In this document: in pieces, positions 11,251 to 50,404 of the stretch
Layout: every line of letters starts with the position of its first letter
How positions within the stretch are numbered: position 1 is the first letter of the stretch
Source: an uncultured Candidatus Saccharibacteria bacterium
Lineage (GTDB): Bacteria > Patescibacteriota > Minisyncoccia > UBA6257 > UBA9933
Length of the DNA stretch: 64,000 nucleotides
Direction of reading: 5' to 3'
Assembly (NCBI GenBank): GCA_964453135.1
Contig: CAYVOL010000003.1
Coordinates: forward strand, 33,976 to 97,975
Made by a program: the position numbers and the translations under genes
The notes under the pieces: generated by a model
Databases searched by the model: none
Told to the model about the DNA's origin: nothing
What the model saw: the letters and a program-made list of their open reading frames with translations, nothing else

Positions 11251-11332
11251 TCTTTTAACTTGTAGCATGAAACGTGAAACGCAAAAAAATCTCTTACAAG
11301 GTTACACGCGTTATTTACATGCCATGTGCTAT

Positions 11333-11824: not shown

Positions 11825-11931
11825 TAGTAATAATCACAAAACATGAAACGTAAATCTTGAAACTGGAGACAAACAATTGAGACAAGCTCCGAGTTTCAGG
11901 GTTCAAGTTTTATGTTTTAAGATTTTCTCCT

Positions 11932-13023: not shown

Positions 13024-13030
13024 TATAAAT

Positions 13031-36223: not shown

Positions 36224-36227
36224 TCAA

Positions 36228-37373
36228 ATGTTTCAAACAGGGATTGTAGGATTGTTATTAATAGCGGTTTTGACGATAGGCGGATTTTATTTTGTTCATA
36301 ACAACGGCGCGGTTCAAATTTTGCCTTCCTCCAATGATAATAAAGCGAATTATTCTTCAACGACTTCTTTCCATGAGAAGACGGAAAGTTTGAGCCTTGA
36401 CGCGCCGGCGCAGTGGATAAAACGGGAAATTAAAAACCAAACTCAATTTTCCGATTCAGCGGGGGGCGCCATAAGCGAGAATAATAATCAGGGAAATAAT
36501 CAAAAAAGAAAAGAAAACAAAAATGTTTTCCAACCGACTTCTTCTAACCAGACATTTTTCTCATCTTCTGACTCAACTTCCGGCGTTTCATCTCAGGATG
36601 ATAGAACGAGTATTACCGGAGAATACTATAAGAAATTTCTGGAAAGCACTTTTTTTATTGGTTTTGACGCGAATCAGCTTGCAGGCATGAAAAAGGAGGA
36701 AAACGGCCGGGCGCTTACATTAGAGGAATTGATTGATTTGGCGAGAAACGGAACTCCGCTCGGCGGATTGAAATCGTCTTTCCTTGCCTGGAGCGATTTG
36801 GATAAAAGAGTTTTGGCGCAGATGGAAGGTTTATCCGTTGATTCGCGAGCCGCTGAAATCCATCAGGAACTTTTAGAATGGTTTAAGTATCATCAGGCGA
36901 CTGCCGAGAAGTTAAGCGGGGATATTGATTTGCCGCAGATAAATAAAATTTATTTTGATTTTCAGGAGAAAGCCGCTGTTCACAATTCACAATTTAAAAA
37001 ATATCTGGATAATCCGATAATCTCCGATTCGCTGATGGAAAAAATTTTCGGGCTGTTTTTGCCACCGCGGGCCGAAGCGTTTACTTGCGGAGCAATGGTG
37101 CCGCCGCCCTTTTATCATTTTGGAGGAAGGGTAATTCTAATGAAACCTTGTAATTGGGGAATAGTGGAAACCATATCTCCTCCCTGTGGCGGAGAATTGC
37201 TTTTTACTTATCCGGTTTTAGCCGGCAATCCTTTTCTGTGGAAAAAACCCACTATTGGTTCCGCGGTTTTGGGAAGGTCTGTTATCGCTCCGGGGATTTG
37301 TCCGGTAGGCATAATACCAATGTTTCCTTATGAGGCCATAGTTTTGTATTTCGGCACATCCTTAACCCCGTGA
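36228..37373 (+). CDS. hypothetical membrane-anchored protein with Cys-containing C-terminal domain
   Basis: N-terminal TM (IVGLLLIAVLTIGGFYFV), a Ser/Asn-rich linker and four Cys in the last ~100 aa. The start was moved from 36192 to the first ATG after the rsmA stop. Confidence 0.4.
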   Translation: MFQTGIVGLLLIAVLTIGGFYFVHNNGAVQILPSSNDNKANYSSTTSFHEKTESLSLDAPAQWIKREIKNQTQFSDSAGGAISENNNQGNNQKRKENKNVFQPTSSNQTFFSSSDSTSGVSSQDDRTSITGEYYKKFLESTFFIGFDANQLAGMKKEENGRALTLEELIDLARNGTPLGGLKSSFLAWSDLDKRVLAQMEGLSVDSRAAEIHQELLEWFKYHQATAEKLSGDIDLPQINKIYFDFQEKAAVHNSQFKKYLDNPIISDSLMEKIFGLFLPPRAEAFTCGAMVPPPFYHFGGRVILMKPCNWGIVETISPPCGGELLFTYPVLAGNPFLWKKPTIGSAVLGRSVIAPGICPVGIIPMFPYEAIVLYFGTSLTP

Positions 37374-37428
37374 TTTTTGTTATCCACATTGTTTTTAGCC
37401 TGCGAAAACAGGTATAATAGGTAGTGAA

Positions 37429-38259
37429 ATGCCTAAAAATTTGAGGGTCGGGTTGGCGGTTTTTGTGTTGATTGCCGGAATAACGGCCACTTATTTTATT
37501 ATTCAAAATTCTTCGGATTCTTCTCTAACAGAAAATCATAACGGAGAAGAAAATAAAACGGAAAATCAAGCAGTGGAGCTTATCCCTGATAATCCCTTGG
37601 ATTCTTCGAACGCAAGCTCAAGCCGGTTTTCCGTTTCAAACGGCAAAACAGCAAAAGCGAATTACAATTTGACCAACTCAATCGCCGAGTCGGTTTTCAA
37701 CAATCTTAATTCATCTGATGTTGTCAGCAAGATTAATAATAAAATTTCTCCCTCAGGCGGTTCATTGCCGAACGTAAATATCAATGATGTTTTGTCCAAA
37801 GCGCAGGCGGATTTGCGGCTTGTTTCAACAGACGACATTAAAGATAATCAACTAAAAATCTCCTCGGATAATTCCGCAAGCGCCAAACGAAAATATTTAA
37901 GCGATATTACCGCAACTCTTACAAATGATCTGAGTAATTTCAATAAAAATTATTTGCAGATAATCGTGGATACTTACCAAAAACTTGATTCTTCTTCAGC
38001 TGAAAAAGCGGCGGATATTTACGGGAAATTGGCGCGAGATTTTATGAATACTAACGTTCCTTCGGATTGGCAGGATGTTCATAAGGCAACCATTGTTTAT
38101 TATAAAAACTCGGAGGTTGTTTATCGGGCAATGGCCGATTATCAGAACGACCCGATAAAAGGTTACGCGGCTCTAGAAATTATTGAACAAGTGGCGGATG
38201 AAGGTTTGGCGGTCCAGCAGCAGCTGGCGGGAAAAGTAAAATTATTAAGCAAACAATAA
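37429..38259 (+). CDS. hypothetical membrane-anchored/secreted protein
   Basis: N-terminal TM (LAVFVLIAGITATYFII), with the remainder hydrophilic. No motif recognised. Confidence 0.4.
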   Translation: MPKNLRVGLAVFVLIAGITATYFIIQNSSDSSLTENHNGEENKTENQAVELIPDNPLDSSNASSSRFSVSNGKTAKANYNLTNSIAESVFNNLNSSDVVSKINNKISPSGGSLPNVNINDVLSKAQADLRLVSTDDIKDNQLKISSDNSASAKRKYLSDITATLTNDLSNFNKNYLQIIVDTYQKLDSSSAEKAADIYGKLARDFMNTNVPSDWQDVHKATIVYYKNSEVVYRAMADYQNDPIKGYAALEIIEQVADEGLAVQQQLAGKVKLLSKQ

Positions 38260-38262
38260 TTT

Positions 38263-39804
38263 ATGTTGGGAAAAAGGCAAAACATAATTTCAGCGTCGTC
38301 AATGATTTTTTTGGCGATTTTTTTGGTTAGCGAAGTAGCGGGCAATATTGTTTTTGTTGAGCAGGCGCAAGCGCAGACGTCAACGGGAAGCATAGCGGGG
38401 AAAGCTATTGCCGCGGGAACGGCTTGTTTTTTAAGCACGAAAGTAGAAGATTTGGCAGTCGGGCTTATTACTAAACTCCCTCTATTCGGAGAAGATGCTT
38501 CAGAAATGCCTAGTCATCCTTACGCTGTTCCGAGTGTTAGTGTTAATTTGCCAAGCGAAATTGGCAAAGTCCAAACCTCCAATGCTTTGATGAAATCCAA
38601 AGACTGCATCCGCGATGTTTTGGCGAAAATTCTTTTAGATTGGATAACCAACGAAACCGTTAACTGGATTTCCGGTGGAGGAAAGCCGGGGTTTGTCACC
38701 AACTGGAAAAATTTCTCCAACGACGCTTTTAACGCCGGCATAGGGGAGCTTATTTTTGACGACGCGAATTTCCGATCTCTTTGTTCCCCGTTTTCTTATC
38801 AGGTGCGGCTTAGTCTTTTGCCGGTTCAGCATTTCTTCGGCGACCAGATAAGATGCACGCTTGATCAGGTAACGAACAATATCCAGAATTTTTACGATGA
38901 CTTCCGAAACGGAGGATGGGTCACGTATGTTCAGATGGCGCGGCCGGAAAACGATTATTTCGGAGTGATGATGATGATTCAAGACGAGGCTTTGCGCCGC
39001 GCGTGGGCGGAGCAAAGAGCCAAAGAAAACGAAGCTTTGGCCGGAAAAGGATTTTTGTCGGTGAAGCAGTGCGAAGAGTGGGATCCTAACGACAAAACCA
39101 AATGTATTAAAGAATCAATTGTTACTCCCGGAGACGCGGTGGGGCAGACTGTTGGCGCCGCCATTACCTCGGACGTCCAATGGTCCGCCAATATCAAATC
39201 CTGGGTAGCGGCTTTGGTTAACGCGGCTCTTAACCGTCTTTTGAAAGAGGGTTTGGCGCAGATTAAAGGCGGAAGCAGTTCCAGCGGATTTTATTTCACC
39301 AACAGCTCGCCAAGAAATTACTATTACGGGTCAGGCGGAAATTATAATCCGATGGTCGGTTATCAGTATCAAGCCAAAACGGATTTGACTGACGGAATGC
39401 AGAAAGTTTTTGATGACTTGACGGTGATCAAGGGCGACAAGCAGTCAACGTTGTCTTATGCCAGCTCTACTTTACAAACTCTGACAGCTCTTCAGGCGGG
39501 GAATTGCCAGCCGCCGGTTTCCGCCGCCGATATTTCCGACGCGCAGAAGAAAGTTCAGACTTTAACCAACGACTTGGCGAGCATTGAAAATTTGAGAATA
39601 AAAATCAACCAGTTTATTCAGTACATAGAGAGTCTTACGGACAGTCAATTTACTCAGCAGTTTTCCAGTTTGCAGAGTCAGTTCAATGATTTAAGTTCTC
39701 AGGCTTCCACTTTCGGAGATACTTATCAATCAGAGGCGGCTTTGTCCCAAGCCGAAGCGGATAACGCCGCGGCAAAGACACGAGCGCAAACGTGCGGAAT
39801 ATAA
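38263..39804 (+). CDS. hypothetical secreted protein (513 aa)
   Basis: N-terminal signal/TM (MIFLAIFLVSEVAGNIVFV) followed by a large extracytoplasmic domain. It lies immediately upstream of the VirB6-like gene. Confidence 0.4.
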   Translation: MLGKRQNIISASSMIFLAIFLVSEVAGNIVFVEQAQAQTSTGSIAGKAIAAGTACFLSTKVEDLAVGLITKLPLFGEDASEMPSHPYAVPSVSVNLPSEIGKVQTSNALMKSKDCIRDVLAKILLDWITNETVNWISGGGKPGFVTNWKNFSNDAFNAGIGELIFDDANFRSLCSPFSYQVRLSLLPVQHFFGDQIRCTLDQVTNNIQNFYDDFRNGGWVTYVQMARPENDYFGVMMMIQDEALRRAWAEQRAKENEALAGKGFLSVKQCEEWDPNDKTKCIKESIVTPGDAVGQTVGAAITSDVQWSANIKSWVAALVNAALNRLLKEGLAQIKGGSSSSGFYFTNSSPRNYYYGSGGNYNPMVGYQYQAKTDLTDGMQKVFDDLTVIKGDKQSTLSYASSTLQTLTALQAGNCQPPVSAADISDAQKKVQTLTNDLASIENLRIKINQFIQYIESLTDSQFTQQFSSLQSQFNDLSSQASTFGDTYQSEAALSQAEADNAAAKTRAQTCGI

Positions 39805-39809
39805 TAAAA

Positions 39810-42197
39810 ATGTTTTCATCGCATAAAAAATTTATTTTGTCGCTTATTTTGATGGGGGCGGTTTTTGGAGTTGTTTTTGGCAGCGCGGGAGTTGGTTTGA
39901 CGTTGGCGGCGCCGGGCGACGGCAACGGCGGTTTGGGGGCCGGGATGTATAGCGGGTCTGGCGCCGCCGCTGGCACATGGAGCGGCAATCCTACGCCAAA
40001 CATCCAAAATCCAAGCGCAACAAATGAGCAGCTTAATCCTAATGGCACGACGAATGCCGAGAAAGCAACTACATTTGCGGTGGAGGCTTCGTTTTTTAAG
40101 TGGATATTACAAATAATATTAGGAGTTGTGGCGTCTTTTGTTCAGTGGGCGATGGATTTAAGTCAGAATTTAGACAAAATTACGGCTATCCAAGACGCTT
40201 GGAGAGTGTTTTTGAATTTGGCTGACCTAGGTTTTATTGTGGCTCTGATTGTTATTGCTTTCGCTACCATAATTCACTACGAAAACTACGCTATGAAGAA
40301 TACTCTATGGAAATTGATTGTGGCGGCGCTTTTAGTAAATTTCAGTTTTACCATCGGGATGTCTTTCATCCAGCTTTCTAACGCTGTTAGCGGATTTTTG
40401 ATTAGTAATATCACTAAAGATAAGGGAGGATTGGCGAATAGTTTAGGAACAATGATGTCTGTAAACAGGTTGTCCGAAAATGCCATTAGCAAAGATCCTG
40501 GTATCATTGCGTCTATTTGGAATGCGGGGAAAATGATCGCTGATGTACTTACAAATCCCCACAGGGTTCTCCTTAACGCCATTTTTATGATCATTTTTGT
40601 CATTCTTATGCTTTTAACCTTTTTTACTTTATTTGTTATGTTGTTGGTGCGATTTGTACATTTGGCTATATTGTTGATTTGGTCTCCCATTGCCTGGTTT
40701 TGTTGGATTTTCCCTTATACTGATAGCCATTGGAAAAAATGGTGGCGTGATATGTTGAAATGGAATATTTTTTTGCCCGCTGTATTATTGTGGATTTATG
40801 TGGCGCAATTGGTAGCAAATAATGTTAATGATTTGTCTATAAGTAAATCAGGGTTTGGAAGTTCTCAGGCAGATACAATGGCAAGCGTGGCGACCGAGGC
40901 TGTTTTGGGAGCGGATTTCTTTAGTTATGCCGCAAAAATAGTGTTGATTTGCGGGTTTATCGTAATGGGTATGATAGCGGCTTATGAGACGGGCATCGCG
41001 GGAGGAAAAATTGCCTATAACCGAGCTGAGGCGATGAAGAATTGGAGCGTTAATAAATCTAAAGGCAAGGCGAAAGAATGGGGATGGAGAGCCGGACGAG
41101 GCGCCGTAGGTGGAGAATGGGTTAAGAAAAAGGCGGGTGAGTTATCTCAAGCGGAAGGAAGGGGCATTAAAAAGCCTTGGGCTTTTGTTCAAAAGCAGTT
41201 AGCCAAGGGATTAAACAGAATGGGAGCGGCCACGGAAGCAGGCGTGAAGAAAGCTACTGACGATAAAGAATATCGCAAATATGTCAGCAGTTTGGATAAA
41301 ACTCGGCAGCAGATTGAATTGCAAAGCATGAGCGGAAGGAAACTGGCTATTGCCGTGGAAGAGTTAAGTAAGTCCGGCAAATTGGATTACGACGGTAAAT
41401 TTACCGTTAAACTTCGGGAAGATCCTGAATTGTTAAAGCGAATGGAGGGTGATTTCAATAGGTTTAAATTAGATGACAAGATGCTTTTGCAAGCCGCGGG
41501 GTTTAGAAATTCCAGTTTGATGGAATTGGAACAAGATCCTGAATATCAAAGAGCCAGGAATTATCGCGCAGCCCAGCAATTAGAGCAAGAAGCGGTAGAA
41601 GCTGAATCGCGGGGAGATTTGGGAGAAGCCAGAGCTAAAACGGCCAAGCGCAATATGATTATGGATGAATTAGATATGACGAAGTTTGATACAACGAAAG
41701 TAGATCAGATAATTGAAGAACATGACAACAAACTCTCTGATATTCAGAAGAAGTTTTCTAACGCGGATATCAGCAAGAATAAAGCAGTTCAAGATTTGTT
41801 TAAGGAAAAACCCGCGGTTGGCGCTGTGTTGGGAACCGATGTTATTATCGGAATGCGGCAGGCGTTTGTGGATGCGTTGAGCCAGGCGGATAAAATCGAC
41901 GTTTTGAATTCAATGCCTTCCAATATGAACAGTCACCAAGTTCGCCAGTTGAATGTTGCTATGGAAAATACCATCAAGAATCTTGAAGCTTTAGCGGAGC
42001 AAGCGAAGAAAGCGAAGGATGTAAGGAAAGAGGAGGAATATAGAGAAAGGATTAAACGAATGCAAAAAGCTAGAGATAGGTCATTGGGCAGGGCGCTTCT
42101 TGGCGCTGCAGAGACCAAAAAGAAAAAAGGAGGAGGAGAAGATGAGGATGAAGATGATGAGAAAGAGGAGAAGGGGAAAAAGGAAGAGAAAAAATAA
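39810..42197 (+). CDS. VirB6/TrbL-like polytopic membrane protein with long cytoplasmic coiled-coil and K/E-rich tail (TcpH/PrgH-like)
   Basis: About 6-8 TM segments between aa 100 and 420. A coiled-coil C-terminus ends in an EEKGKKEEKK tail. The size and architecture resemble VirB6-like channel components of Gram-positive T4SSs. The N-terminal ~50 aa are paralogous to the ORF at 48247. Confidence 0.5.
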   Translation: MFSSHKKFILSLILMGAVFGVVFGSAGVGLTLAAPGDGNGGLGAGMYSGSGAAAGTWSGNPTPNIQNPSATNEQLNPNGTTNAEKATTFAVEASFFKWILQIILGVVASFVQWAMDLSQNLDKITAIQDAWRVFLNLADLGFIVALIVIAFATIIHYENYAMKNTLWKLIVAALLVNFSFTIGMSFIQLSNAVSGFLISNITKDKGGLANSLGTMMSVNRLSENAISKDPGIIASIWNAGKMIADVLTNPHRVLLNAIFMIIFVILMLLTFFTLFVMLLVRFVHLAILLIWSPIAWFCWIFPYTDSHWKKWWRDMLKWNIFLPAVLLWIYVAQLVANNVNDLSISKSGFGSSQADTMASVATEAVLGADFFSYAAKIVLICGFIVMGMIAAYETGIAGGKIAYNRAEAMKNWSVNKSKGKAKEWGWRAGRGAVGGEWVKKKAGELSQAEGRGIKKPWAFVQKQLAKGLNRMGAATEAGVKKATDDKEYRKYVSSLDKTRQQIELQSMSGRKLAIAVEELSKSGKLDYDGKFTVKLREDPELLKRMEGDFNRFKLDDKMLLQAAGFRNSSLMELEQDPEYQRARNYRAAQQLEQEAVEAESRGDLGEARAKTAKRNMIMDELDMTKFDTTKVDQIIEEHDNKLSDIQKKFSNADISKNKAVQDLFKEKPAVGAVLGTDVIIGMRQAFVDALSQADKIDVLNSMPSNMNSHQVRQLNVAMENTIKNLEALAEQAKKAKDVRKEEEYRERIKRMQKARDRSLGRALLGAAETKKKKGGGEDEDEDDEKEEKGKKEEKK

Positions 42198-42202
42198 AAA
42201 AT

Positions 42203-43903
42203 ATGTTAACAATTTCCCAGCAACAAATTGATAATCGTTATGATTCTCTTCCCGCTGTTTTGAAGGAGGCGCTTTTTTCCACTGACAACGCGGATTCGTT
42301 GTGGAACATTGGCGATGGCAATCATCTTTCTGATGACAAAAAATCAGATTTAGCCGGAATTGTGGGCAACGTGATTTTGGGATTTATTCACCCTGATGAT
42401 TTAGCCAAAGAAATAGCCGCTGACTTGATGATTGATAATCGCTTAGCTCAGCAGTTGTCGGAAGAGGTTAATAAAAAAATAATTTCGCCGGTTCGCTCGG
42501 AAGTTGAAAAAATTTATCGGTCGCCCTCAGCCGGCGCCGCGTCTGATTTATCATTAAAAATTCCGCTAAGGGAAATGAAAGAGCAAGAAGAATCGCCCGT
42601 TGTTTCGGAGAGCCCGAAGGAAATATTGACAGGGGAGAAACCGAAAGTTTTGGATGTTTCCGCGCCGGCTGTTTTTTCTTTGTCTCCTGATTCTAATGAG
42701 AGAGCGCCGGAAGGAACGGGAGGGTTTCTAAAAACTAAACCAAAAACAGGAGAAGAGTTGAGATCTGAGCTGGGAGTAGTGTCGGACGCTAAACTAGAGG
42801 CAATAGAGAAAGTAGAAGAATTTGTCGCCAAAGAGCCAATCAGAGAATTTAAGCCGGAAAAAGCGGAGCCGGTAAAAATAGAAGAAGCGCCCACTATTAT
42901 TCACGAAGAAGCTGAAATAAAACAAACTGTAAATACCAAGCCGTATATCAGCGGAATTTTCGGATTTTTGAAACGCAAGCGTCCAACAATCACCGAACAG
43001 GTAAAAATAACAGCCACGATTAATCCGGAGGAAGAAAGTCCGCAAAATATATCCCAGAAATTGCCGGCAGAAAAAGAAGAAAAAGAAAAAACAATTCCCT
43101 CCGATAGTTCTTATGAAAGCGGCCAATTAAAGACAGAAGCAGGGAAGAATCAAGAGGAGGGACATCAGTTGTTTTCCATAGAAGATATTATTTCCGCTAG
43201 AAAGGAGACGAAAGAGAGGGAAGAACAAGAAAAGATTATTGAAGAGCAGGTATTGGAAAATCAACCAAGCGGCGCGGCGGCAGAGTTGTCTCAGGCGTCT
43301 CAATCTCCTAAAACACTGGAAACGCCGGTTGAAATTCCTTTTGAAATTCCTTCGGCAAATGAGTTTTTAGCATCGCCTTCGCCAGTTCCTCCCTCATCGC
43401 TTTCGTCGTCGGATATTTTGGCGGAAGAGAAATTAGCCATTCAAGAAGAGTCTCAAAAAGAAGAACAGCCAGCGGCGCCAAAAGAACAATTCTTGTCCAA
43501 TGTTTCGGAAGAAAAATTGACAGCTCAAGATGATAAACCGAAAATCCGCGTAGTGCATTACAGCGATTTGAGGACATTGCTGGAAGAATCAGGAGAACAA
43601 GGAAAGCAGGAAAAAATGAACAATGTTTTTCCGGAAGAAAATGAAATAGAAAATAAGAAAGAGATAATTGAGCAAGAAAATAAAGCGGAGAAAATTTTAG
43701 CAGTTAATTTTCCACCGGAAGATAGAAAGGAAAATAAAGAAGATTTAAAGAGCCAGCAAGCGGCGCGGGAAACTTCGCCAGTTAATGCTTCTTCGGCTCC
43801 CGCAGGATCGGCTGAAAAAGATATCCCTGATGTCAATAATATAAAACTGGAAGATTTGCCGGTGGGAGACAATGTTATTGACTTGCGGAAGCTGGAGCAA
43901 TAA
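42203..43903 (+). CDS. acidic low-complexity (E/K/S/P-rich, likely disordered) protein with a structured N-terminal ~110 aa
   Basis: 566 aa of mostly low-complexity charged sequence. No enzymatic motif. Confidence 0.45.
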   Translation: MLTISQQQIDNRYDSLPAVLKEALFSTDNADSLWNIGDGNHLSDDKKSDLAGIVGNVILGFIHPDDLAKEIAADLMIDNRLAQQLSEEVNKKIISPVRSEVEKIYRSPSAGAASDLSLKIPLREMKEQEESPVVSESPKEILTGEKPKVLDVSAPAVFSLSPDSNERAPEGTGGFLKTKPKTGEELRSELGVVSDAKLEAIEKVEEFVAKEPIREFKPEKAEPVKIEEAPTIIHEEAEIKQTVNTKPYISGIFGFLKRKRPTITEQVKITATINPEEESPQNISQKLPAEKEEKEKTIPSDSSYESGQLKTEAGKNQEEGHQLFSIEDIISARKETKEREEQEKIIEEQVLENQPSGAAAELSQASQSPKTLETPVEIPFEIPSANEFLASPSPVPPSSLSSSDILAEEKLAIQEESQKEEQPAAPKEQFLSNVSEEKLTAQDDKPKIRVVHYSDLRTLLEESGEQGKQEKMNNVFPEENEIENKKEIIEQENKAEKILAVNFPPEDRKENKEDLKSQQAARETSPVNASSAPAGSAEKDIPDVNNIKLEDLPVGDNVIDLRKLEQ

Positions 43904-44032
43904 ATAAAACTTGAATCTTAAAACTCAAATCTTGAATTTTAAAATCACAACGAGAACTCTAAACTTGGAAATTCAGTCACAGATATTTTTTAATAGAGAT
44001 TTTGGGTTTTCTTTCTCTAGTTTTGTTATTTT

Positions 44033-44548
44033 ATGCAGTTTCAAACTCCTCAATTTATTGAAATAGAAGATAAGATTTGGGGACCTTTTTCTTTAAGGGA
44101 GCTTTTGTATTTAATCGCCGGAGGGGCGGTTAGTTTATTTGCTTTTTATTTATTTAAATTCTGGCTGGCGGCCGTTACCACCGCGCTGGCGGCTTCTTTA
44201 AGTTTGTCTTTCGCTCTAATCAGGTATAACGGTCAGCCTTTTCATAGGCTCGTCTTTTCCGTTTTTTATTATTTTTGGCATCCGCGTTTTTATTTGTGGC
44301 AAAGGCAGATACAGGAGAAAACCATTGATATTCCGGAATTTTCCGTTTTGAACAAGCGTAAGACCTTGAAAGAACTGGCCAGCGAAATGCCGTCCGTAAA
44401 GCAGTTGTGGATGCAGATGATGACGGCTAAGAATCCCATTCCGGCGCGGGAAAAAGCCGTCAACATTGATCGCATCACCGACAGATTTTCTTTATTTAGG
44501 AAATTAAGTGGAGAGAGAGAGGTGGCGAGAAGAATTGATTATCGTTGA
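44033..44548 (+). CDS. PrgI/VirB3-like small membrane protein
   Basis: The N-terminus QFIEIEDKIWGPFSLRELLYLIAGGAVSLFAFYLF fits the PrgI-family pattern (..I.G.fs.Rq...l..g.. + 2 TM). It sits directly upstream of VirB4, as in Gram-positive T4SS loci. Confidence 0.5.
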   Translation: MQFQTPQFIEIEDKIWGPFSLRELLYLIAGGAVSLFAFYLFKFWLAAVTTALAASLSLSFALIRYNGQPFHRLVFSVFYYFWHPRFYLWQRQIQEKTIDIPEFSVLNKRKTLKELASEMPSVKQLWMQMMTAKNPIPAREKAVNIDRITDRFSLFRKLSGEREVARRIDYR

Positions 44549-44607
44549 TTGGTGGCAAGAATCCGTTGGATTGGTTATTATAGTTTGATAGGGTAAATAA
44601 TTTTATT

Positions 44608-45267
44608 ATGCCTAAAGAATCACAGCCTACGCAACAATTTGTAGACATAGAAGAAATCCGAAACGGAATAGTCGTTTTGAAAAACGGAAGTTTGCGCCGC
44701 GTTCTGCTTGTTTCGGGAATTAATTTTGAGTTAAAATCGGAAGAAGAAAAAAACGCCGTTCTGGGCGCTTACCAGAATTTTCTAAATTCTTTGGATTTTT
44801 CTTTGCAAATCGTCGTCCATTCCCGGAAGTTTAATATAGAAAAGTATATTAAAAATGTGGAAAGTCGCTTGGAACAGGAGGGGCACGAGTTGATAAGAGA
44901 ACAGACCACGGAGTATTTGAATTTCATCAAATCGTTCGTTCAGGACAACGCTATAATGTCCAAGAATTTTTTTGTGATAGTGCCTTACGAATCCATCTCT
45001 TTGAAAGAAGCCGCCGGATTTTTGGGAAACATCCCGTTTTTAGGCAATAAGAAGAATGCCAAAAAAGAAGCGGCGAAAGCGAGAGAAACTATCGCGGAAA
45101 AAACAATCCAGCTGGACCAGCGGACAGAGGCTGTTATCAACGGATTGGTGAGCGTCGGGTTGAGAGCCATTATCCTGGACGATGAAGAACTTATTGAATT
45201 GTTTTATAATTTATACAATCCTCAGTCTACGGAGAAAAAAGAATTGAAAATCGCCAAACAGCAATAA
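44608..45267 (+). CDS. VirB4/TrbE/CagE N-terminal domain, encoded as a separate ORF
   Basis: ...IVVLKNGSLRRVLLVSGINFELKSEEEKNAVLGAYQNFLNSL... matches the CagE_TrbE_VirB N-terminal domain pattern. It ends with a TAA immediately followed by the ATG of the ATPase ORF (taaATG). Confidence 0.55.
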   Translation: MPKESQPTQQFVDIEEIRNGIVVLKNGSLRRVLLVSGINFELKSEEEKNAVLGAYQNFLNSLDFSLQIVVHSRKFNIEKYIKNVESRLEQEGHELIREQTTEYLNFIKSFVQDNAIMSKNFFVIVPYESISLKEAAGFLGNIPFLGNKKNAKKEAAKARETIAEKTIQLDQRTEAVINGLVSVGLRAIILDDEELIELFYNLYNPQSTEKKELKIAKQQ

Positions 45268-47013
45268 ATGGAACAAGTTAAAATACCGCAAGCCTATACT
45301 CCCGGAGAGCGCGATGTAGAAAATATTATCGCGCCGGCCGCTATAGAAATTAATCCCAACTACCTACGCTTGGGGGATATTTTTTCCAAAACTCTTTTTC
45401 TTTTCACTTATCCGCGCTATCTGGCAAGCGGCTGGTTTGATTCTTTGGTGAATATGCCTGAGCTTCTTGATTTGGCAATTTTTGTCCATCCTATTGATAC
45501 GGCGGAAGCTTTGAAAAAACTGCGCAGAAAAGTTACGGAAATTGAGGCGCAGTTGGCGGAACGGGCGGATAAGGGAATGGTGCGCGACCCGCAATTGGAA
45601 ACAGCCTACACTGACGTGGAAAATTTAAGAGACCAGCTTCAGCAGGCGCAGGAAAGATTGTTTGATGTTAGCGTGTATATCACCATTTACGCCAATTCGC
45701 TGGAAGAACTTAACGCCGCGGAAGAAAAATTGGTGAATCTGCTGGACAGCCAGCTGATTTACGCCAAGCCCACGATGTTCCAGCATATTGACGGATTTAT
45801 TTCCACTTTGCCTTTGGCGCAGGACAAACTTTTTATCCATACTCCTTTTAACACCCAGCCGCTTTCTTCTTTTTTCCCTTTTGTTTCGGCAGACCTTACT
45901 TCTGAGGAAGGAATTTTATACGGCGTCAACGAGCATGATAATTCGCTGGTGATTTTTGACCGTTTTTCTCTGGAAAATTACAATCAGGTTATTTTTGCTA
46001 AAGCCGGCGCGGGAAAATCATTTACCGCGAAGGTGGAAATTTTAAGGTCTCTGATGTCGGACATAGACGTTTTGGTTATTGATCCGGAAAACGAATATCA
46101 GCGCTTGGCGGATTCCATGGGAGGAAGCGTAGTGAAAATTTCTCTTACTTCCAAGACATCCATTAACCCTTTGGATATCCCTATTGTTCCTAAAGGGGAA
46201 GACCCGGCCGATGTTTTTAAGTCGCATATTTTGAATTTAGTGGGCCTTTTGAAATTGATGCTGGGGGAGATTACTCCCGAAGAGGACGCTATTTTGGACC
46301 GCGCTATTGCCGAAACTTATTTTTCCCGGGGCATTACCGCTGACGTGAAAGATTTTTCCAAGCTGGAGCCGCCGCTTTTGGAAGATTTAGAGACGGTTTT
46401 AAATAATATTGAAGGAGGAAAGAGCATGGCGTCCCGTCTTTATAAATACACCAAAGGAACTTACGCCGGTTTTGCCAACCGTCCTACCAATGTAGAGGTG
46501 AATAACAGAATGGTTGTTTTTGAAATCCGCGATTTGGAAGAAGAACTGCGTCCGATGGCGATGTATATCGTGCTTAATTTCGTGTGGAATTTAATCCGTT
46601 CGCAGCTGAAAAAACGGATTATGATTATTGACGAGGCTTGGTGGATGATGAAATATCCGGACAGCGCCGCTTTTCTTTTTAGCTTGGCGAAAAGATGCCG
46701 CAAGTATTATCTGGGGCTGACCACCATCACCCAGAACGTGGAGGATTTTCTCAATTCTCCTTACGGCCACCCGATTATCACCAACTCCTCTTTGCAGTTG
46801 TTGTTGAAACAGGCGCCGGCCGCGGCGGACATTATCACGCGCACTTTCAGCTTGAGCGAAACGGAAAAAAACTTTTTGCTTCAGGCGGAAGTAGGTGAAG
46901 GAATATTCTTGGTGGGGTTAAAGCACGTGGTTTTGAAAATTTTAGCTTCTTATTTTGAAGAGCGCATCATTACCACCAATCCGGAAGAATTATTGGAGAT
47001 GGGGGAGGGATAA
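45268..47013 (+). CDS. virB4: VirB4-family T4SS ATPase (C-terminal ATPase portion)
   Basis: Walker A AKAGAGKSFTAK and the VirB4-type Walker B IIDEAWWMM, with a C-terminal motif block (TQNVEDF). Confidence 0.75.
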   Translation: MEQVKIPQAYTPGERDVENIIAPAAIEINPNYLRLGDIFSKTLFLFTYPRYLASGWFDSLVNMPELLDLAIFVHPIDTAEALKKLRRKVTEIEAQLAERADKGMVRDPQLETAYTDVENLRDQLQQAQERLFDVSVYITIYANSLEELNAAEEKLVNLLDSQLIYAKPTMFQHIDGFISTLPLAQDKLFIHTPFNTQPLSSFFPFVSADLTSEEGILYGVNEHDNSLVIFDRFSLENYNQVIFAKAGAGKSFTAKVEILRSLMSDIDVLVIDPENEYQRLADSMGGSVVKISLTSKTSINPLDIPIVPKGEDPADVFKSHILNLVGLLKLMLGEITPEEDAILDRAIAETYFSRGITADVKDFSKLEPPLLEDLETVLNNIEGGKSMASRLYKYTKGTYAGFANRPTNVEVNNRMVVFEIRDLEEELRPMAMYIVLNFVWNLIRSQLKKRIMIIDEAWWMMKYPDSAAFLFSLAKRCRKYYLGLTTITQNVEDFLNSPYGHPIITNSSLQLLLKQAPAAADIITRTFSLSETEKNFLLQAEVGEGIFLVGLKHVVLKILASYFEERIITTNPEELLEMGEG

Positions 47014-47017
47014 TTAA

Positions 47018-47425
47018 ATGGAACAATACGAGCAAGACGAAATAGAATATCAGGAAGGAGAAGAAGATGAGGAAAAGGAAGGAATAAGGATTCATTTAGC
47101 CGAGGGTATTTTTATCACTTTGTTGTTGATTACTACTGAAGGCATTGGCGCAATATTGAGTTGGGCGACATTTGCCGGCGCGATTATTTCCGAAGTTATT
47201 AACGGAGCAGTGGGAATAGCCGTGGAAATATATTTATTTTTTAGAGGCGCGCGAGGCGCGAGGCAATTGGCTGTTTTCGGATTGGGTATTTTTATTGACG
47301 AGATGGATGGAGGATTTTTTCCCACGGAAACAATTTTATGGCTTATTACCTGGTATTTGATAAATCATCCTAAAACAATGGAAAAAATGGGACCGGCAGC
47401 TCAAATAGCTGAATTGGGGAAATAG
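47018..47425 (+). CDS. small protein with acidic N-terminus and two TM helices (T4SS-associated, unknown role)
   Basis: An MEQYEQDEIEYQEGEEDEEKEG tail, then two hydrophobic helices. A VirB2-like role is speculative. Confidence 0.35.
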   Translation: MEQYEQDEIEYQEGEEDEEKEGIRIHLAEGIFITLLLITTEGIGAILSWATFAGAIISEVINGAVGIAVEIYLFFRGARGARQLAVFGLGIFIDEMDGGFFPTETILWLITWYLINHPKTMEKMGPAAQIAELGK

Positions 47426-47526
47426 AAAAATTTTGATACAATATAGAAAAGAAGTTCAAAATGAAAAATCTAAAAGGCAAAATTTTAATCAAAAATTAAA
47501 AAGTGATTGATGGGGAATAATTTTTA

Positions 47527-48237
47527 ATGAAACTTTATATATTGAAAATCTTTTTTTTGGCATTAATTATTGTATCAGGGGCGTTTCAATCAGCGCGGGC
47601 GCAGTCAGGCCAATCACTTCAACCCGCGCCGGAATTTTTGGCAAGCTGGCAGGCAAATTCTTTCGTTCCCTCCTGGTACGAAGGGAAAATCTTTCCGGTT
47701 TACGGCAGCCGCATTGACGTGAATTTTGAATTGATTGACAATGGGAAAATCGCCGATTTGTCCAAAGAAAAAGTGCGCTGGTATGTCAATGATGATTTGA
47801 TATTGAACGAGAAAAATGGCTTGGGAATAAAAAACTTTTCTTTTGTCAACAACTATTTTTACGGCGGAGAATTGGAAGTAAAAATTTCCATTCCCGAATA
47901 CAAATCGGGATCGCTGATTAAAGTTGTTCATATTCCGGTAAAAACTCCGGAGGTGGCCGTTGAGGCGCCTTATTTCGGGCAAATTCTTAAGCAGGGAAAG
48001 AATCTGGTTTTTGCCTGGCCATTTTTCTTCAGCGCCACAGACTTGAATAATCTGTCGCTGGAGTGGCGCGCGGACGATAAAACTTTGGCGAAAGCAACCG
48101 CTCTTAACCCGAGTTTTTATGTTAATGTTGACGCGGGAGCAGAGTCGGGGAAGAAAATAAATTTGCTGGCGCGTTTCAGTAATTTGAAAAATAATATGGA
48201 GTTTGCCGGCAAGGCGATAATATTAGAGACGCCGTAA
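47527..48237 (+). CDS. secreted protein with cleavable signal peptide
   Basis: MKLYILKIFFLALIIVSGAFQSARA|QSG is a classic signal peptide. Confidence 0.4.
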   Translation: MKLYILKIFFLALIIVSGAFQSARAQSGQSLQPAPEFLASWQANSFVPSWYEGKIFPVYGSRIDVNFELIDNGKIADLSKEKVRWYVNDDLILNEKNGLGIKNFSFVNNYFYGGELEVKISIPEYKSGSLIKVVHIPVKTPEVAVEAPYFGQILKQGKNLVFAWPFFFSATDLNNLSLEWRADDKTLAKATALNPSFYVNVDAGAESGKKINLLARFSNLKNNMEFAGKAIILETP

Positions 48238-48246
48238 ACTATAGAA

Positions 48247-49203
48247 ATGTTTTCATCGCATAAAAAATTTATTTTGATGTTCATCCTACTGGGGGTGGGT
48301 TTTGGGAGCGTATTTGTTGGTTTAGTTATGGCGGCGCAAGGTGATGGAAACGGCGGCTTGGGACCCGGTATGTATAGTGGATCTAACGCCGCTAACGGCA
48401 CTGCTCAAAATGGAGTGAATGTGGGAGGGTTGCCTAGCACAATCGCTAATTCTCAAAGTCCCGGAGAGTTGGTTAAAAATATTTATCAATATGCCTTGGG
48501 CATTGTCGGTTTGGCGGCATTGGGAGCGATTATTTACGGAGGAATCTTATGGATTTTTTCCGCCGGTATTCCCGGCAATCAAGCGAAAGCTCAGGAATGG
48601 ATTAAGGGAGCCTTGTGGGGACTTTTGCTTTTACTGGGCGCGGCTGTTTTATTCAATACTATTAATCCCTATATCGTGGATACCGGAGCGATTGATGCCA
48701 GCTTGAAGCAGAATCTTAATCAAGGTCAGTTGCCTCCGGCGTCTCAAGCGCCGCCAACTTCATCAACACCGACTGACAGTACCTGGCCTCCTGTTTCCGA
48801 TGCGGAAGCAAGAGCTATGATAGGAGGGGACGCTAATATTAATAATCCCGACTGTCAAAAGGTAGGGGATCAGAATTGCACAAGTTTGCGCGGGATGCCG
48901 AACCCAACATTGAATTGCATAAAACAAATCGCGTCTGCTACTCAAAAAGTTACCGGCGGAACAGAATGGTGGTTACATGGAGACGGAGTAAGCCCCGATA
49001 GTACGCATCATGGGCCGGGAAAGGCAACGGCAGATTTTCGATATTCTAGAACATTGCCAAGTCAAATAGACGGATATAAACAAAAGGGCTGGGTTACTTT
49101 TTATCAATGTGAAAATAGAAGACAAAAAATTAGTTGTGACGGAAGCCAAGGAACGCCCGATCATGTTCATGTAGAATTTGCTCCAGGCACTTCTTGCCAA
49201 TAA
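48247..49203 (+). CDS. membrane protein sharing the N-terminal module of the VirB6-like protein, with a Cys/His-containing C-terminal domain (possible cell-wall hydrolase)
   Basis: The N-terminus MFSSHKKFILMFILLGVGFGSVFVGLVMAAQGDGNGGLGPGMYSGS matches 39810. The C-terminus has WWLHGDG...HHG...HVHVEF, reminiscent of the M23 peptidase HxH terminal motif. The hydrolase call is speculative. Confidence 0.4.
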   Translation: MFSSHKKFILMFILLGVGFGSVFVGLVMAAQGDGNGGLGPGMYSGSNAANGTAQNGVNVGGLPSTIANSQSPGELVKNIYQYALGIVGLAALGAIIYGGILWIFSAGIPGNQAKAQEWIKGALWGLLLLLGAAVLFNTINPYIVDTGAIDASLKQNLNQGQLPPASQAPPTSSTPTDSTWPPVSDAEARAMIGGDANINNPDCQKVGDQNCTSLRGMPNPTLNCIKQIASATQKVTGGTEWWLHGDGVSPDSTHHGPGKATADFRYSRTLPSQIDGYKQKGWVTFYQCENRRQKISCDGSQGTPDHVHVEFAPGTSCQ

Positions 49204-49210
49204 TTTTCTT

Positions 49211-50404
49211 ATGAAAAAAATCATTATCATAATTTCCATTGTCGCTATTTTAGCCGTAGGCGCCGGAGTTTATTTGGCTTGGCAGAAATACAGCAAGTCA
49301 AATGAACAGGTTTCGGTTCCCGCCACTCCTTCTACCGCTAACCCTTCTGTTAATTATCATTTTTCTTCTTCCACTGCGTCGCGGATGAGACAAATAAGCA
49401 AAGAACCGGCGTGGTTTTATTGGTTAAGCAAGGGAGCGGTTTCTATTTCCGGTTCCTCGTCTGCTTCTGTTGGGTTGACGCCGAGCGCGCCTTCCTCGCT
49501 TTTTTATATTGCCGCCAGCGACCATAAAATCAGAGAAATTGCCGCTAGCGGAGAAACGATGATAAGCGATTCTTTGTCGGCGGACGATTATCAAAGCGCC
49601 GTGGTCTCTTTTGACGGGAATTTGCTGGCTTTGAAAGTTGGCAATCATTTAAGTAATGGGTTAACCGGGCAATGGATAATTTTTGATGCCAAGAAAAAAG
49701 TTCAGCTGGCGTTTTTAAGCAATGTCAGCGCATTCGCTTGGTCGCCTTCTGACAATAAAGCGATTTATTTTCAGCCCAACAATAAAGGCGGTTCTGATTT
49801 GATTATCAATGATTTTACCGCGGTCAAGCAAAAGCCGCAGAAAATTATTTCTCTTAACCAGGGAGATTTTTCTTTGCAGTGGATTGCCGGCAACAATGTT
49901 CTATTGTTGTCGCCCCCCTCTTTTGATTGGGAGTCGGAGATATGGAATTTGGACATTAAAAATAAAACTTTGAAAAAAGTTGCTGCGGGGAAAAGTTTGA
50001 CGATTAACTGGGCGAAAAATGTTCAGGAAGGATTGAAGCTGGCCCAGCTCGGCAGCGATAATTATGAACTGAGCCTTGTCAATTTTTCCGGAGAAAAACA
50101 GGCGGATTTCAAATTCAAAACTTTTCCCGATAAATGTTTTATCGCCACGGCTTCCCAGCTTTACTGCGCTATTTCTAAAAATCAGGAAGTGTTTTCCTTG
50201 ACAGATATTTTTGACAGATATTTGAAGAGGGAGATTTATTTTAAGGACGGAATTTACAAGGTTGACTTGGCGGAAAATAAATTTATTCCGCTTTACGAAG
50301 GGGAAAATCCGGCCATAGACGCGGCGAATCTTACTTTTGACGGCCGCAATAAGCTGTATTTTATCAATCGGTATGATAAGCAGCTTTATGAGTTAGAGAT
50401 TTAG
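49211..50404 (+). CDS. hypothetical membrane-anchored extracytoplasmic protein
   Basis: N-terminal TM (MKKIIIIISIVAILAVGAGVYLAW) followed by a large hydrophilic domain. Confidence 0.4.
   Translation: MKKIIIIISIVAILAVGAGVYLAWQKYSKSNEQVSVPATPSTANPSVNYHFSSSTASRMRQISKEPAWFYWLSKGAVSISGSSSASVGLTPSAPSSLFYIAASDHKIREIAASGETMISDSLSADDYQSAVVSFDGNLLALKVGNHLSNGLTGQWIIFDAKKKVQLAFLSNVSAFAWSPSDNKAIYFQPNNKGGSDLIINDFTAVKQKPQKIISLNQGDFSLQWIAGNNVLLLSPPSFDWESEIWNLDIKNKTLKKVAAGKSLTINWAKNVQEGLKLAQLGSDNYELSLVNFSGEKQADFKFKTFPDKCFIATASQLYCAISKNQEVFSLTDIFDRYLKREIYFKDGIYKVDLAENKFIPLYEGENPAIDAANLTFDGRNKLYFINRYDKQLYELEI

Follow-up and report, generated by a model that had tools for sequence, protein, structure and literature searches.

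A run of 12 genes, all on the + strand, occupies positions 36228-50404 (14 kb) of the 64-kb stretch of DNA analysed here (the window) and resembles the conjugative type IV secretion systems (T4SSs) of Gram-positive bacteria, raising the question of whether it belongs to a mobile element or is a resident apparatus with another role. The original prediction placed these co-oriented ORFs correctly and proposed a VirB6/PrgI/VirB4 core with a wall-hydrolase candidate, all of which is supported by HMM, fold and synteny analysis. The host is a member of the Paceibacteria/Parcubacteria, with Candidatus Wolfebacteria and Jorgensenbacteria as its nearest named relatives. We consider it highly probable that the cluster is a resident, chromosomally fixed T4SS of the kind typical of Patescibacteria (CPR), host-facing and non-conjugative. 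This reading is supported but already published (Wang 2023; Quinonero-Coronel 2025): TrsD, the pilins, the absence of a relaxase and the ksgA neighbourhood are in print, and papers of 2023-2025 describe such T4SSs as fixed in the chromosomes of ultra-small Patescibacteria (PMC10633639; PMC12102498). Our additions are modest, namely that a pilin-peptidase fusion is widespread and that five accessory families are conserved without annotation.

The cluster and its flanking boundary gene comprise the following features, given with the evidence for each:

35423-36223, +, ksgA, 16S rRNA dimethyltransferase (PF00398, E 1.9e-45)
36228-37373, +, predicted N-terminally anchored protein, 381 aa from ATG (TM prediction)
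37429-38259, +, predicted N-terminally anchored protein, 276 aa (TM segment at residues 7-25)
38263-39804, +, predicted exported or anchored helical protein, 513 aa, 8 Cys (conservation, AlphaFold2)
39810-42197, +, putative VirB6/TrbL-like polytopic channel protein, 795 aa (homologues and fold)
42203-43903, +, predicted acidic cytoplasmic protein, 566 aa (composition, no TM segment)
44033-44548, +, PrgI/VirB3-like membrane protein, 171 aa (PF12666)
44608-45267, +, TrsD-like protein, 219 aa (partial NCBIfam matches, synteny with VirB4)
45268-47013, +, VirB4 ATPase, 581 aa (NCBIfam, Pfam, PDB)
47018-47425, +, predicted small membrane protein, 135 aa (hydrophobic segments, conserved slot)
47527-48237, +, predicted signal-peptide protein, 236 aa (N-terminal signal-like segment)
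48247-49203, +, pilin-peptidase fusion protein, 318 aa (PF18895 and C-terminal domain profile)
48454-48663, +, VirB2-like T4SS pilin domain of the fusion, residues 70-139 (PF18895)
48799-49200, +, putative Hedgehog/DD-peptidase (LAS, M15-like) zinc-peptidase domain of the fusion, residues ~185-318 (profile)
49211-50404, +, predicted N-terminally anchored protein, 397 aa from ATG (one TM segment, propeller matches)

The cluster lies in a conserved chromosomal setting

Housekeeping genes flank the cluster, with uvrD-ksgA upstream and a histidine kinase gene, fpg, PBP2 and mreBC downstream, and GC content is even across the window. The ksgA gene, which is outside the machine itself, is a conserved marker of the upstream boundary, being found there in 42 of 47 covered loci from different species; KsgA has also been reported to be abundant near virB4 in Patescibacteria (PMC12102498). 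The predicted lack of a relaxase, coupling protein, integrase and tRNA holds within the 64 kb: no tRNA was found in the window, and no relaxase, VirD4 or integrase was detected in any scanned ORF, a scan that took in all but ~10 ORFs, which lie away from the cluster and, at 134-198 aa, are below the size of VirD4. Most Patescibacteria genomes carry VirD4 homologues elsewhere (PMC12102498), and genes for VirD4 and a relaxase may lie beyond the 64 kb, which form part of a 121-kb contig. No direct repeats flank the cluster, the sole long repeat being internal.

As the original prediction suggested might be checked by synteny, the order uvrD-ksgA-...-513-VirB6-566-PrgI-TrsD-VirB4-135-236-pilin-408 (numbers are protein lengths) is colinear in dozens of species-level genomes of Paceibacteria, up to 76 in all, with VirB4 identities of 55-77%. 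This arrangement and its junction with ksgA return in one species after another, the pattern of a vertically inherited locus and not of a mobile element. The housekeeping flanks, the even GC content and the synteny across related small-genome Patescibacteria species likewise speak for a resident apparatus rather than an integrative conjugative element, in agreement with the predicted chromosomal, non-conjugative character of the system.

The core consists of VirB6, PrgI and a VirB4 encoded by two ORFs

The VirB6-like ORF encodes 801 aa from a GTG at 39792 or 795 aa from the ATG at 39810, which is the publicly annotated start. The product has a signal-like N-terminus followed by ~6 TM segments, with the TM core at approximately residues 80-430, and ends in a long charged extension. 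The VirB6 assignment stood by way of homologues and the AlphaFold2 fold but not by a direct match, as the window protein itself had none in Pfam. TrbL (PF04610) was matched by 5 of 38 syntenic orthologues (best E 1.3e-7), and the homologue P0076, which matches the window protein at E 3.3e-9, reaches 30.7 bits on TrbL, for which the gathering score is 25.9. When the AlphaFold2 model was searched against the PDB with Foldseek, the top five matches were chains of the TrwJ/VirB5-TrwI/VirB6 stalk complex of R388 (probability 0.99-1.00, E 2e-3 to 4e-2), with modest TM-scores (0.31-0.44), E-values that are weak even at best (2e-3) and sequence identities of 14-17%. The matched chains are 260-272 residues long; from this and from their chain letters, we infer that they are TrwI/VirB6. 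Transitive homology and the weak Foldseek match thus support a VirB6-like identity for the predicted protein.

The PrgI assignment was confirmed by HMM, the 171-aa protein matching PF12666 with 32.4 bits (E 1.4e-7; gathering score 27). It contains a hydrophobic hairpin at residues 23-63, and its gene is colinear in 72 of 73 covered loci.

For VirB4, the predicted family was correct but the single gene was not, as two ORFs of 219 and 581 aa are involved. The 581-aa protein is assigned by its profile matches to the Gram-positive type (CD1110, MPF_FATA-like), scoring 386.9 bits on NCBIfam conju_CD1110 (cut-off 325; model positions 185-730) and matching P-loop_TraG (E 5.9e-22), AAA_10 and DUF87 in Pfam and the VirB4 C-terminal domain structure 4AG5 in the PDB (E 9.9e-49). 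At least 586 relatives of this VirB4 are found in species-representative genomes. The 219-aa TrsD-like protein is the detached N-terminal segment of VirB4. It matches conju_CD1110 at positions 2-135 of 752 (E 1.2e-10), as well as VirB4_plasma (E 5.6e-13), TrsD NF041427 (E 2.7e-9) and TIGR00929 (E 4.9e-6), all below the whole-protein cut-offs, and its TAA stop codon directly abuts the ATG of the 581-aa ORF. At five loci (L015, L017, L019, L037 and L032), TrsD-like protein and VirB4 form a single ORF of ~790 aa, whose product can be aligned over its full length with the window pair (55-61% identity). All 76 loci covered have the TrsD-like gene.

This core resembles that of the Gram-positive MPF_FATA conjugative T4SSs (the C. 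difficile CTn2 CD1110 family; PrgH/PrgI/PrgJ/PrgK of pCF10; TrsD/TrsE of pGO1), with which the cluster shares a VirB4 above the conju_CD1110 cut-off, a PrgI above the gathering score, a TrsD-like protein and a monoderm-type set without VirB7, VirB9 and VirB10. Unlike those systems, it has no relaxase, T4CP or oriT context, is not on a mobile element, and encodes a VirB2-like pilin, which the Gram-positive systems lack. No VirB8-like or VirB1-like family was detected, neither a VirB1 of the PrgK/TrsG type nor a VirB8 of the PrgL/TcpC type. With the Gram-negative R388 Trw/VirB-type T4SS (PDB 7O3V, 8RT9), the cluster has in common the VirB6 fold match and a two-TM VirB2-type pilin, whereas the outer-membrane core (VirB7, VirB9, VirB10) and VirB11 are absent and VirB5 was not detected.

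The closest likeness is to the T4SSs of other Patescibacteria, represented by SEML1_0006-0019 of Southlakia epibionticum ML1 (PMC10633639) and by a phylum-wide survey that found TrsD, PrgI, VirB6, VirB2-like pilins and rare relaxases (PMC12102498). These are also chromosomal, with an MPF_FATA-like VirB4 adjoining a TrsD-like gene, PrgI/VirB3, VirB6 and a VirB2-like pilin (PF18895) in the cluster, KsgA in the neighbourhood and no relaxase or T4CP nearby.

The pilin is fused to a peptidase-like domain

The original prediction described the 318-aa protein as having a possible hydrolase domain. A C-terminal peptidase-like domain is indeed present, but the protein is primarily a T4SS pilin, which had been missed. 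A signal peptide is followed by the VirB2-like pilin domain (PF18895, E 2.8e-8, above the gathering score; also matched by 21 of 23 orthologues), a Pro/Ser/Thr linker and the C-terminal domain. A profile of the latter matches the N-domains of Sonic, Indian and Desert hedgehog across the zinc site (E 1e-5 to 1e-3) and, weakly, phage L-Ala-D-Glu peptidase and Peptidase_M15_3/4. Among 124 family members, C203, C211, T212, E240, H255, D263, H306 and H308 are conserved, and 85 of the 124 cluster representatives also bear the T4SS_pilin domain. As in the Hh/DD-peptidase family (MEROPS M15A, LAS), which includes the Sonic hedgehog N-domain, Streptomyces DD-carboxypeptidase and phage T5 L-Ala-D-Glu endolysin (Roelink 2018, PMC6027127), the zinc ligands follow the pattern H...D...HxH, and the motif around them (TGGTE.WLH / T.H.PG...VD) is shared as well. 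The domain differs from that family in its fusion behind a T4SS pilin and its extra conserved Cys pairs.

We regard this domain as likely to cut cell walls, although it falls below Pfam gathering scores and the window copy lacks the near-invariant Glu upstream of HxH, so that this copy might lack activity or rely on a different base. Southlakia, a member of the Saccharimonadia, has an array of six pilin genes, and its peptidase and lysozyme are encoded by genes of their own downstream of virB4, whereas the cluster described here, from a member of the Paceibacteria, has a single pilin gene, to which the LAS/Hedgehog-type wall-hydrolase candidate is fused. This fusion was not found in the 2023-2025 papers on Patescibacteria T4SSs.

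Most accessory genes are conserved components

The accessory genes had been proposed as candidates for lineage-specific components or substrates; lineage specificity fits the poorly conserved genes at 36228-37373 and 37429-38259 but not the conserved components at 38263-39804, 42203-43903 (N-terminal domain) and 47018-50404. The 381-aa protein, whose ORF opens at a TTG at 36192, has one N-terminal TM segment and a Cys-containing C-terminus; it has no Pfam or NCBIfam family and a tblastn relative in only one of 80 loci (L022, 36%), and is lineage-specific. The 276-aa protein, also without a Pfam or NCBIfam family, has relatives at 8 of 18 close and 3 of 30 distant loci, the matches lying mainly in its C-terminal 137 aa.

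Five further families (the 513-aa protein, the N-terminal domain of the 566-aa protein, and the 135-aa, 236-aa and 408-aa proteins) are conserved envelope or cytoplasmic proteins, and none has a named counterpart. The 513-aa gene is always directly upstream of the VirB6-like gene and is colinear in 17 of 19 close and 18 of 31 distant loci; its 52 homologues are unnamed or from Paceibacterota, and none of the 52 has a core Pfam family. Its AlphaFold2 model is confident only in a C-terminal helical bundle (residues 363-512), and a fold search with this model gave no meaningful match. The long acidic protein is, as predicted, acidic (566 aa; 114 D+E versus 71 K+R) and lacks TM segments, with a conserved N-terminal domain of ~105 aa, to which tblastn matches are confined (residues 1-105), and a variable, disordered Glu/Lys/Pro-rich tail. 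Its gene is present in 16 of 24 close loci, and the N-terminal domain has no match in PDB or Pfam.

The 135-aa protein, with an acidic N-terminus and two to three hydrophobic segments (residues 30-69), has no Pfam match and was found by tblastn at 1e-5 only in L002, but at 27 of 29 loci the slot downstream of VirB4 is filled by an ORF (98-319 aa), and these ORFs share the motifs KISLPE, ELIPYxGALP and NHP. It thus appears to be a positionally conserved partner. The 236-aa gene is colinear in 23 of 25 close loci; P48, W85 and W180 are invariant, and the protein has no match in Pfam, NCBIfam or PDB. The last protein, 408 aa when read from the TTG at 49178 that opens its ORF, is encoded colinearly in 17 of 19 close loci and probably carries a beta-propeller domain, given weak matches of the protein itself to the YqgU 6-bladed propeller (E 2.3e-3, which misses the gathering score) and of orthologues to PD40, DPPIV_N and other propeller families.

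Possible functions of the apparatus

By analogy with R388, pKM101 and Saccharibacteria genetics, VirB3 would tether a hexamer of VirB4 (with TrsD) to a VirB6 platform in a single membrane, and VirB4 would pull pilin from the membrane and feed it into a pilus or short conduit. Given the pilin topology (a cleaved signal peptide and two TM helices), the peptidase domain would lie outside the cell, where it could sever the peptide cross-links in the peptidoglycan of the cell itself or of its host and let the structure through. A cultivated parasite among the Patescibacteria (Minisyncoccota) bears tubular structures, possibly T4SS pili, that extend toward the host (bioRxiv 10.64898/2026.06.21.733656), and in Southlakia epibionticum, whose cluster likewise lacks a relaxase and coupling protein, T4SS genes including pilins are essential for epibiotic growth, data that come from a different class, Saccharimonadia (PMC10633639). 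The apparatus may similarly serve epibiotic host interaction, by effector export or import of host macromolecules, and not conjugation.

Specific export of effectors, with the T4SS injecting or releasing proteins, possibly the variable accessory gene products, into or onto the host cell, is a tentative proposal that we consider somewhat doubtful. It is favoured for Southlakia ('may instead export proteins'; PMC10633639), and the proteins encoded at the cluster edge (36228-38259), which are exported or anchored and evolve fast, and the pilin C-terminal extensions, which differ between species, are as expected of host-facing parts. However, the analysis recognised neither a known effector family nor a translocation signal or coupling protein, and T4CP-less export of the Brucella/Ptl type depends on substrates that Sec delivers to the periplasm of diderms, an arrangement without an evident parallel in this cluster.

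A dedicated inward machine importing host DNA or RNA as a nucleotide source, comparable to ComB of Helicobacter or archaeal Ced, seems unlikely. In its favour, the 64-kb window has no coupling protein or relaxase to pick outgoing substrates, and for the cultivated parasite, feeding on host RNA via tube-like structures has been proposed and VirB4 is monophyletic in the phylum (bioRxiv 10.64898/2026.06.21.733656). VirB4 also has partial NCBIfam matches to CedB (E 3.9e-11) and CedD (E 1.9e-5), but these are far below the cut-offs and limited to the shared P-loop region, the cluster has no nuclease, ComEC-like channel or nucleic-acid-binding protein, and the direction of transport is not readable from sequence. 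In Southlakia, deletion of comEC had no effect on viability, and a review concludes that natural transformation is a non-essential route for nucleotide acquisition, a result that bears on transformation and not on T4SS-mediated import.

An ordinary integrative conjugative element or its remnant, with the relaxase, VirD4 and integrase outside the window or too diverged, is very improbable and largely refuted for the 64-kb window: while VirB4 belongs to an ATPase family of Firmicutes/Mollicutes conjugative elements (conju_CD1110, VirB4_plasma) and a relaxase lies near virB4 in a few (15) Patescibacteria genomes (PMC12102498), relaxase, T4CP, integrase, tRNA and terminal repeats are absent here, and the cluster sits at uniform GC between ksgA and cell-envelope housekeeping genes, with its order and ksgA junction retained in 42 of the 47 genomes covered, which belong to different species.

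A T4SS of the Patescibacteria type

The cluster corresponds to a system that Wang et al., 2023 described and Quinonero-Coronel et al., 2025 surveyed. In Southlakia, the T4SS includes pilins, neither a relaxase nor a coupling protein could be recognised, and Tn-seq shows the system to be essential (Wang et al., 2023; PMC10633639); the need for a T4SS in epibiotic growth on a host has been shown by Tn-seq in Southlakia epibionticum alone (PMC10633639). Few other machines have been shown to be indispensable to the epibiotic way of life in Patescibacteria, a very large and mostly uncultured group. In the survey, the Patescibacteria VirB4 is related to MPF_FATA and most often has TrsD as its neighbour; PrgI, VirB6 and VirB2-like pilins occur, relaxases seldom do, and KsgA is common nearby (Quinonero-Coronel et al., 2025; PMC12102498), and a 2025 review counts the Patescibacteria systems as novel T4SSs (PMC12857230). 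Given this match, the original prediction of a non-conjugative, resident system was right, and was already known (Wang et al., 2023; Quinonero-Coronel et al., 2025). At the system level the window adds nothing new; it offers a clear-cut case from the Paceibacteria, in which the set of 10-12 genes is defined and conserved. The gain over the known system lies in a widespread pilin-peptidase fusion and a set of conserved, unannotated partners, and the split VirB4 (TrsD plus ATPase), with fused versions in relatives, establishes what TrsD is.

Genes of the cluster (36192-50404; 12 co-oriented ORFs with short gaps or none). Fractions give synteny by tblastn on 80 related loci; only loci with a flank long enough to include the expected position are counted in the denominators. 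Close-tier loci have a VirB4 that is at least 60% identical; a distant tier is given beside them.
36228-37373, 381/393-aa protein; a relative in one locus only
37429-38259, 276-aa protein; close 8/18, distant 3/30
38263-39804, 513-aa protein; close 17/19, distant 18/31
39810-42197, VirB6-like protein
42203-43903, 566-aa protein; match confined to the N-terminal domain (~105 aa), close 16/24, distant 8/36
44033-44548, PrgI, 171 aa
44608-45267, TrsD-like protein, 219 aa
45268-47013, VirB4, 581 aa
47018-47425, 135-aa membrane protein
47527-48237, 236-aa signal-peptide protein; close 23/25, distant 6/49
48247-49203, pilin-peptidase fusion, 318 aa; pilin, close 16/22, distant 10/46
49211-50404, 408-aa anchored protein (397 aa from the ATG at 49211); only weak beta-propeller matches, close 17/19, distant 7/43

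Some start codons are ambiguous (39792 vs 39810, 36192 vs 36228, 49178 vs 49211); in the first and last genes of the cluster, the ORF taken from its earliest start runs into the gene before it, an overlap that internal ATGs avoid.

VirB4 is split, and its N-terminal piece is TrsD

The 581-aa ORF is a VirB4 ATPase of the monoderm (MPF_FATA-like) type. It matched NCBIfam conju_CD1110 (386.9 bits vs a cut-off of 325) over model positions 185-730 of 752, the Pfam families P-loop_TraG, AAA_10 and DUF87, and the VirB4 C-terminal domain in PDB 4AG5 (E 9.9e-49). Adjoining virB4 is a TrsD-like gene, the 219-aa ORF, whose TAA stop directly abuts the VirB4 ATG. This ORF matched the TrsD model NF041427 (E 2.7e-9) as well as N-terminal positions of three VirB4 models, CD1110 (2-135), VirB4_plasma and TIGR00929; a TrsD profile search of PDB sequences returned nothing significant. 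In five related genomes, TrsD and VirB4 form a single ORF of ~770-790 aa (L015:788-3160, L017:746-3106, L019:9320-11692, L037:9332-11704 and L032:9422-11728, where L numbers denote related loci found via VirB4), and over their full length these fused ORFs align with the window pair (55-61% identity). Since there are fused ~790-aa orthologues and the 219-aa ORF matches the N-terminal part of VirB4 models, VirB4 is split in the window, and its 219-aa N-piece is what the literature names TrsD.

The split arrangement is common to ~70 other species examined and is the majority state. With a single ORF in five genomes and a split in ~70, gene fission or fusion has taken place within the family. We rejected both a recoded stop and a sequencing error at the junction, given the split in the majority of species and the clean TAA-ATG, and rejected an alternative genetic code given that long ORFs read through under table 11.

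PrgI and a VirB6-like protein accompany VirB4

The 171-aa protein is a member of the PrgI/VirB3 family, scoring above the Pfam gathering score. Homologues of both VirB3/PrgI and VirB6 lie near virB4, with the VirB6-like protein of the window itself giving no HMM match. This protein (801 aa, or 795 aa from the ATG at 39810, the start in the public annotation) has a signal-like N-terminus, ~6 TM segments and a long charged tail. It had no Pfam match of its own and none to TrbL (PF04610) at E<=1, and its family profile retrieved nothing significant from PDB sequences. TrbL was matched by 5/38 of the syntenic VirB6-like orthologues (E<=0.1; best E 1.3e-7), and P0076, a homologue that matched the window protein with E 3.3e-9, scored 30.7 bits against TrbL, above the gathering score of 25.9. 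An AlphaFold2 model, the check proposed with the original prediction for the 801-aa protein, was obtained for residues 1-437 (pTM 0.63, TM core pLDDT 85-95). Its top five PDB matches were all chains of the R388 TrwJ/VirB5-TrwI/VirB6 stalk complex (probability 0.99-1.00, weak E of 2e-3 to 4e-2, target-normalised TM-score 0.40-0.44), and from their lengths and chain letters these chains would be TrwI/VirB6. The window protein has at least five TM helices and, as modelled, a VirB6 fold; orthologues and predicted fold support a VirB6 assignment, without proving it. The cluster holds up as a real T4SS-like feature, with VirB4 and PrgI identified by HMM matches and VirB6 supported through its orthologues and predicted fold.

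The pilin is fused to a putative peptidase domain

A VirB2-like pilin gene (PF18895) lies two genes downstream of virB4. The 318-aa product matched T4SS_pilin (PF18895) over residues 70-139 (E 2.8e-8; 34.2 bits vs a gathering score of 26.6), as did 21/23 of its orthologues. Its C-terminal 135 residues form a Cys-rich domain with the motifs TGGTE-WLH, T-H-PG---D and HxH. A profile of this domain from nine orthologues matched the N-terminal domains of Sonic, Indian and Desert hedgehog over the zinc site (E 1e-5 to 1e-3) and, weakly, phage L-Ala-D-Glu peptidase and Peptidase_M15_3/4. Judged by these profile matches, the domain is predicted to be of the LAS or Hh/DD-peptidase fold, the fold of peptidoglycan metallopeptidases (PMC6027127). 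The signal peptide and two TM helices would put it outside the membrane.

With the peptidase domain alone, a word-indexed homologue search returned nothing; an exhaustive HMMER search found 172 clusters at 50% identity. When 124 of these were aligned, two Cys, T, E, H, D and HxH were invariant or nearly so (C203, C211, T212, E240, H255, D263, H306 and H308 in the window protein). The pilin domain precedes the peptidase domain in 85/124 family members, and the fusion is therefore the normal architecture of the family; we found no mention of it in the survey (PMC12102498) or in a literature search. This widespread fusion points to a way in which the structure could pass through a cell wall.

The original prediction had given the 318-aa protein a possible hydrolase domain. 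Its zinc-ligand motif, H-x(n)-D ... H-x-H, is present in context (H255, D263, H306/H308); the other expected marks, a catalytic Glu and a match to a curated family model, are lacking in the window domain. Pfam HH_signal and Peptidase_M15_3/4 reached E 0.007-0.12 in orthologues and did not match the window domain. The rest of the family has a near-invariant Glu upstream of HxH; this residue is absent from the window protein and from its four closest cluster representatives (P0078-P0081), all of which have a shortened segment (residues ~290-308) with PD-HxH in place of the Glu. The missing Glu makes peptidase activity of the window copy uncertain, and these proteins may constitute an inactive or mechanistically altered subgroup.

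The start of the pilin is ambiguous (48247 vs 48277; 308 aa in the public annotation, P0077). We also observed that the 5´ ends of the VirB6-like (39804-39975) and pilin-peptidase (48241-48415) genes share ~170 nt at ~80% identity, with 33 identical bases around the ATG, so that both proteins start MFSSHKKFIL...GDGNGGLG.GMYSGS. This leader is not found in orthologous pilins of other genomes, and the shared 5´ end points to recent copying within the genome, or recent gene conversion, of the signal/leader segment. While the window has a single pilin gene, one related locus (L009) has two pilin-domain matches downstream of virB4 (13155-13385 and 14257-14409), a small pilin array.

Conserved accessory genes

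None of the accessory proteins had a Pfam, NCBIfam or PDB-sequence match, and family profiles of the 566-aa N-domain and the 236-aa protein retrieved nothing significant from PDB sequences. Divergence puts the 135-aa membrane protein beyond the reach of tblastn; a small membrane ORF fills the slot after virB4 in 27/29 loci, forming a fast-evolving, positionally conserved family with the motifs KISLPE, ELIPYxGALP and NHP and no family annotation. AlphaFold2 predicts only helices for the 513-aa protein and is confident in a C-terminal bundle alone. A VirB5-like reading of it was unsupported, the model being of low confidence and Foldseek returning only generic helical bundles. The five unannotated conserved families may supply the missing VirB8-, VirB5- or VirB1-like functions, or may be parts that contact the host.

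Possible functions

The T4SS parts list and its conservation are established; a mechanism can be inferred from the R388 and pKM101 models. The VirB4 (+TrsD) ATPase, tethered by VirB3, would sit on the VirB6 platform, extract pilin and build a pilus or conduit. The wall or the host surface would be the site of action of the peptidase domain carried by the pilin and of the accessory proteins that are exported. As to what such a machine moves, export of effectors is a tentative possibility, and import of host macromolecules is less probable still; a role for T4SS-like tubes in feeding on host RNA was put forward in a 2026 preprint. More speculatively, and rather improbably on present evidence, the pilus or conduit of many Paceibacteria could be studded with Hedgehog/DD-peptidase-type peptidoglycan peptidases, carried on the extracellular C-terminus of the pilin, and serve as a drill that opens the host's or the cell's own wall, giving an ultra-small cell direct access to host cytoplasmic material. 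If true, the pilus itself would have an enzymatic activity, and we found no description of such a pilus in the T4SS literature examined.

A resident chromosomal locus

Within the window, the cluster has no relaxase and lies among chromosomal housekeeping genes.

Surroundings of the cluster
33534-35387, uvrD, upstream
35423-36223, ksgA, upstream
Downstream flank: PAS histidine kinase, fpg, PBP2-type transpeptidase, mreB, mreC
Remaining window: gyrA, leuS, cysS, htrA, dacA, mraY-like, hisS, a second mreB, pilB/pilC/pilin/pilD

As the original prediction had stated, no relaxase, VirD4/TcpA coupling protein or integrase was found by Pfam in the scanned ORFs of the 64-kb window (every ORF of at least 200 aa and some shorter), and the window contains no tRNA. 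No attachment repeats flank the cluster, and GC is even across the window (0.40-0.47 in the cluster, as in the rest). Conjugation by this T4SS is therefore very improbable: the relaxase (MOB), coupling protein and integrase of an integrative conjugative element were not found in the scanned ORFs of the window, and its att sites, tRNA, compositional island and patchy distribution are likewise missing. A 599-aa ORF on the minus strand (29946-31745) gave only a weak N-terminal treble-clef zinc-finger match (E 0.003); with no P-loop family detected, it is not a hidden VirD4.

Comparison across related genomes, a check also proposed initially, showed the order uvrD-ksgA-(variable)-513-VirB6-566-PrgI-TrsD-VirB4-135-236-pilin-408 to be colinear wherever the genes were found, with ksgA upstream of the cluster in 42/47 covered loci. 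This conserved order across species, together with the ksgA junction, argues for vertical inheritance of a chromosomal locus. A VirB4 scan of species-representative genomes gave at least 586 relatives, the best at most 77% identical. The best 80 of these were Patescibacteria (Wolfebacteria, Jorgensenbacteria, Paceibacterota, Parcubacteria) or MAGs titled 'bacterium' or 'uncultured bacterium', which indirectly favours a place for this VirB4 in the monophyletic Patescibacteria VirB4 clade. The closest specifically named relatives were Wolfebacteria, Jorgensenbacteria and Paceibacterota; many related MAGs are titled 'uncultured Candidatus Saccharibacteria', a label that was not used as taxonomy. 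A promoter and terminator scan was uninformative, terminator-like sites occurring at the shuffled expectation.

Other envelope genes in the window

The window also contains a type IV pilus cluster, distinct from the T4SS, at 4486-13588, in which several small ORFs are probably minor pilins. In Saccharibacteria, type IV pili too have been found to be essential, as the other such machine of the envelope.

Type IV pilus genes
4486-6195, PilB ATPase
6207-7424, PilC platform protein
7463-7972, N-methyl pilin
8588-9490, PilD prepilin peptidase

Two MreB paralogues lie within 7 kb (54715-55752 and 61152-62159), the first followed by mreC and preceded by the PBP2 gene.
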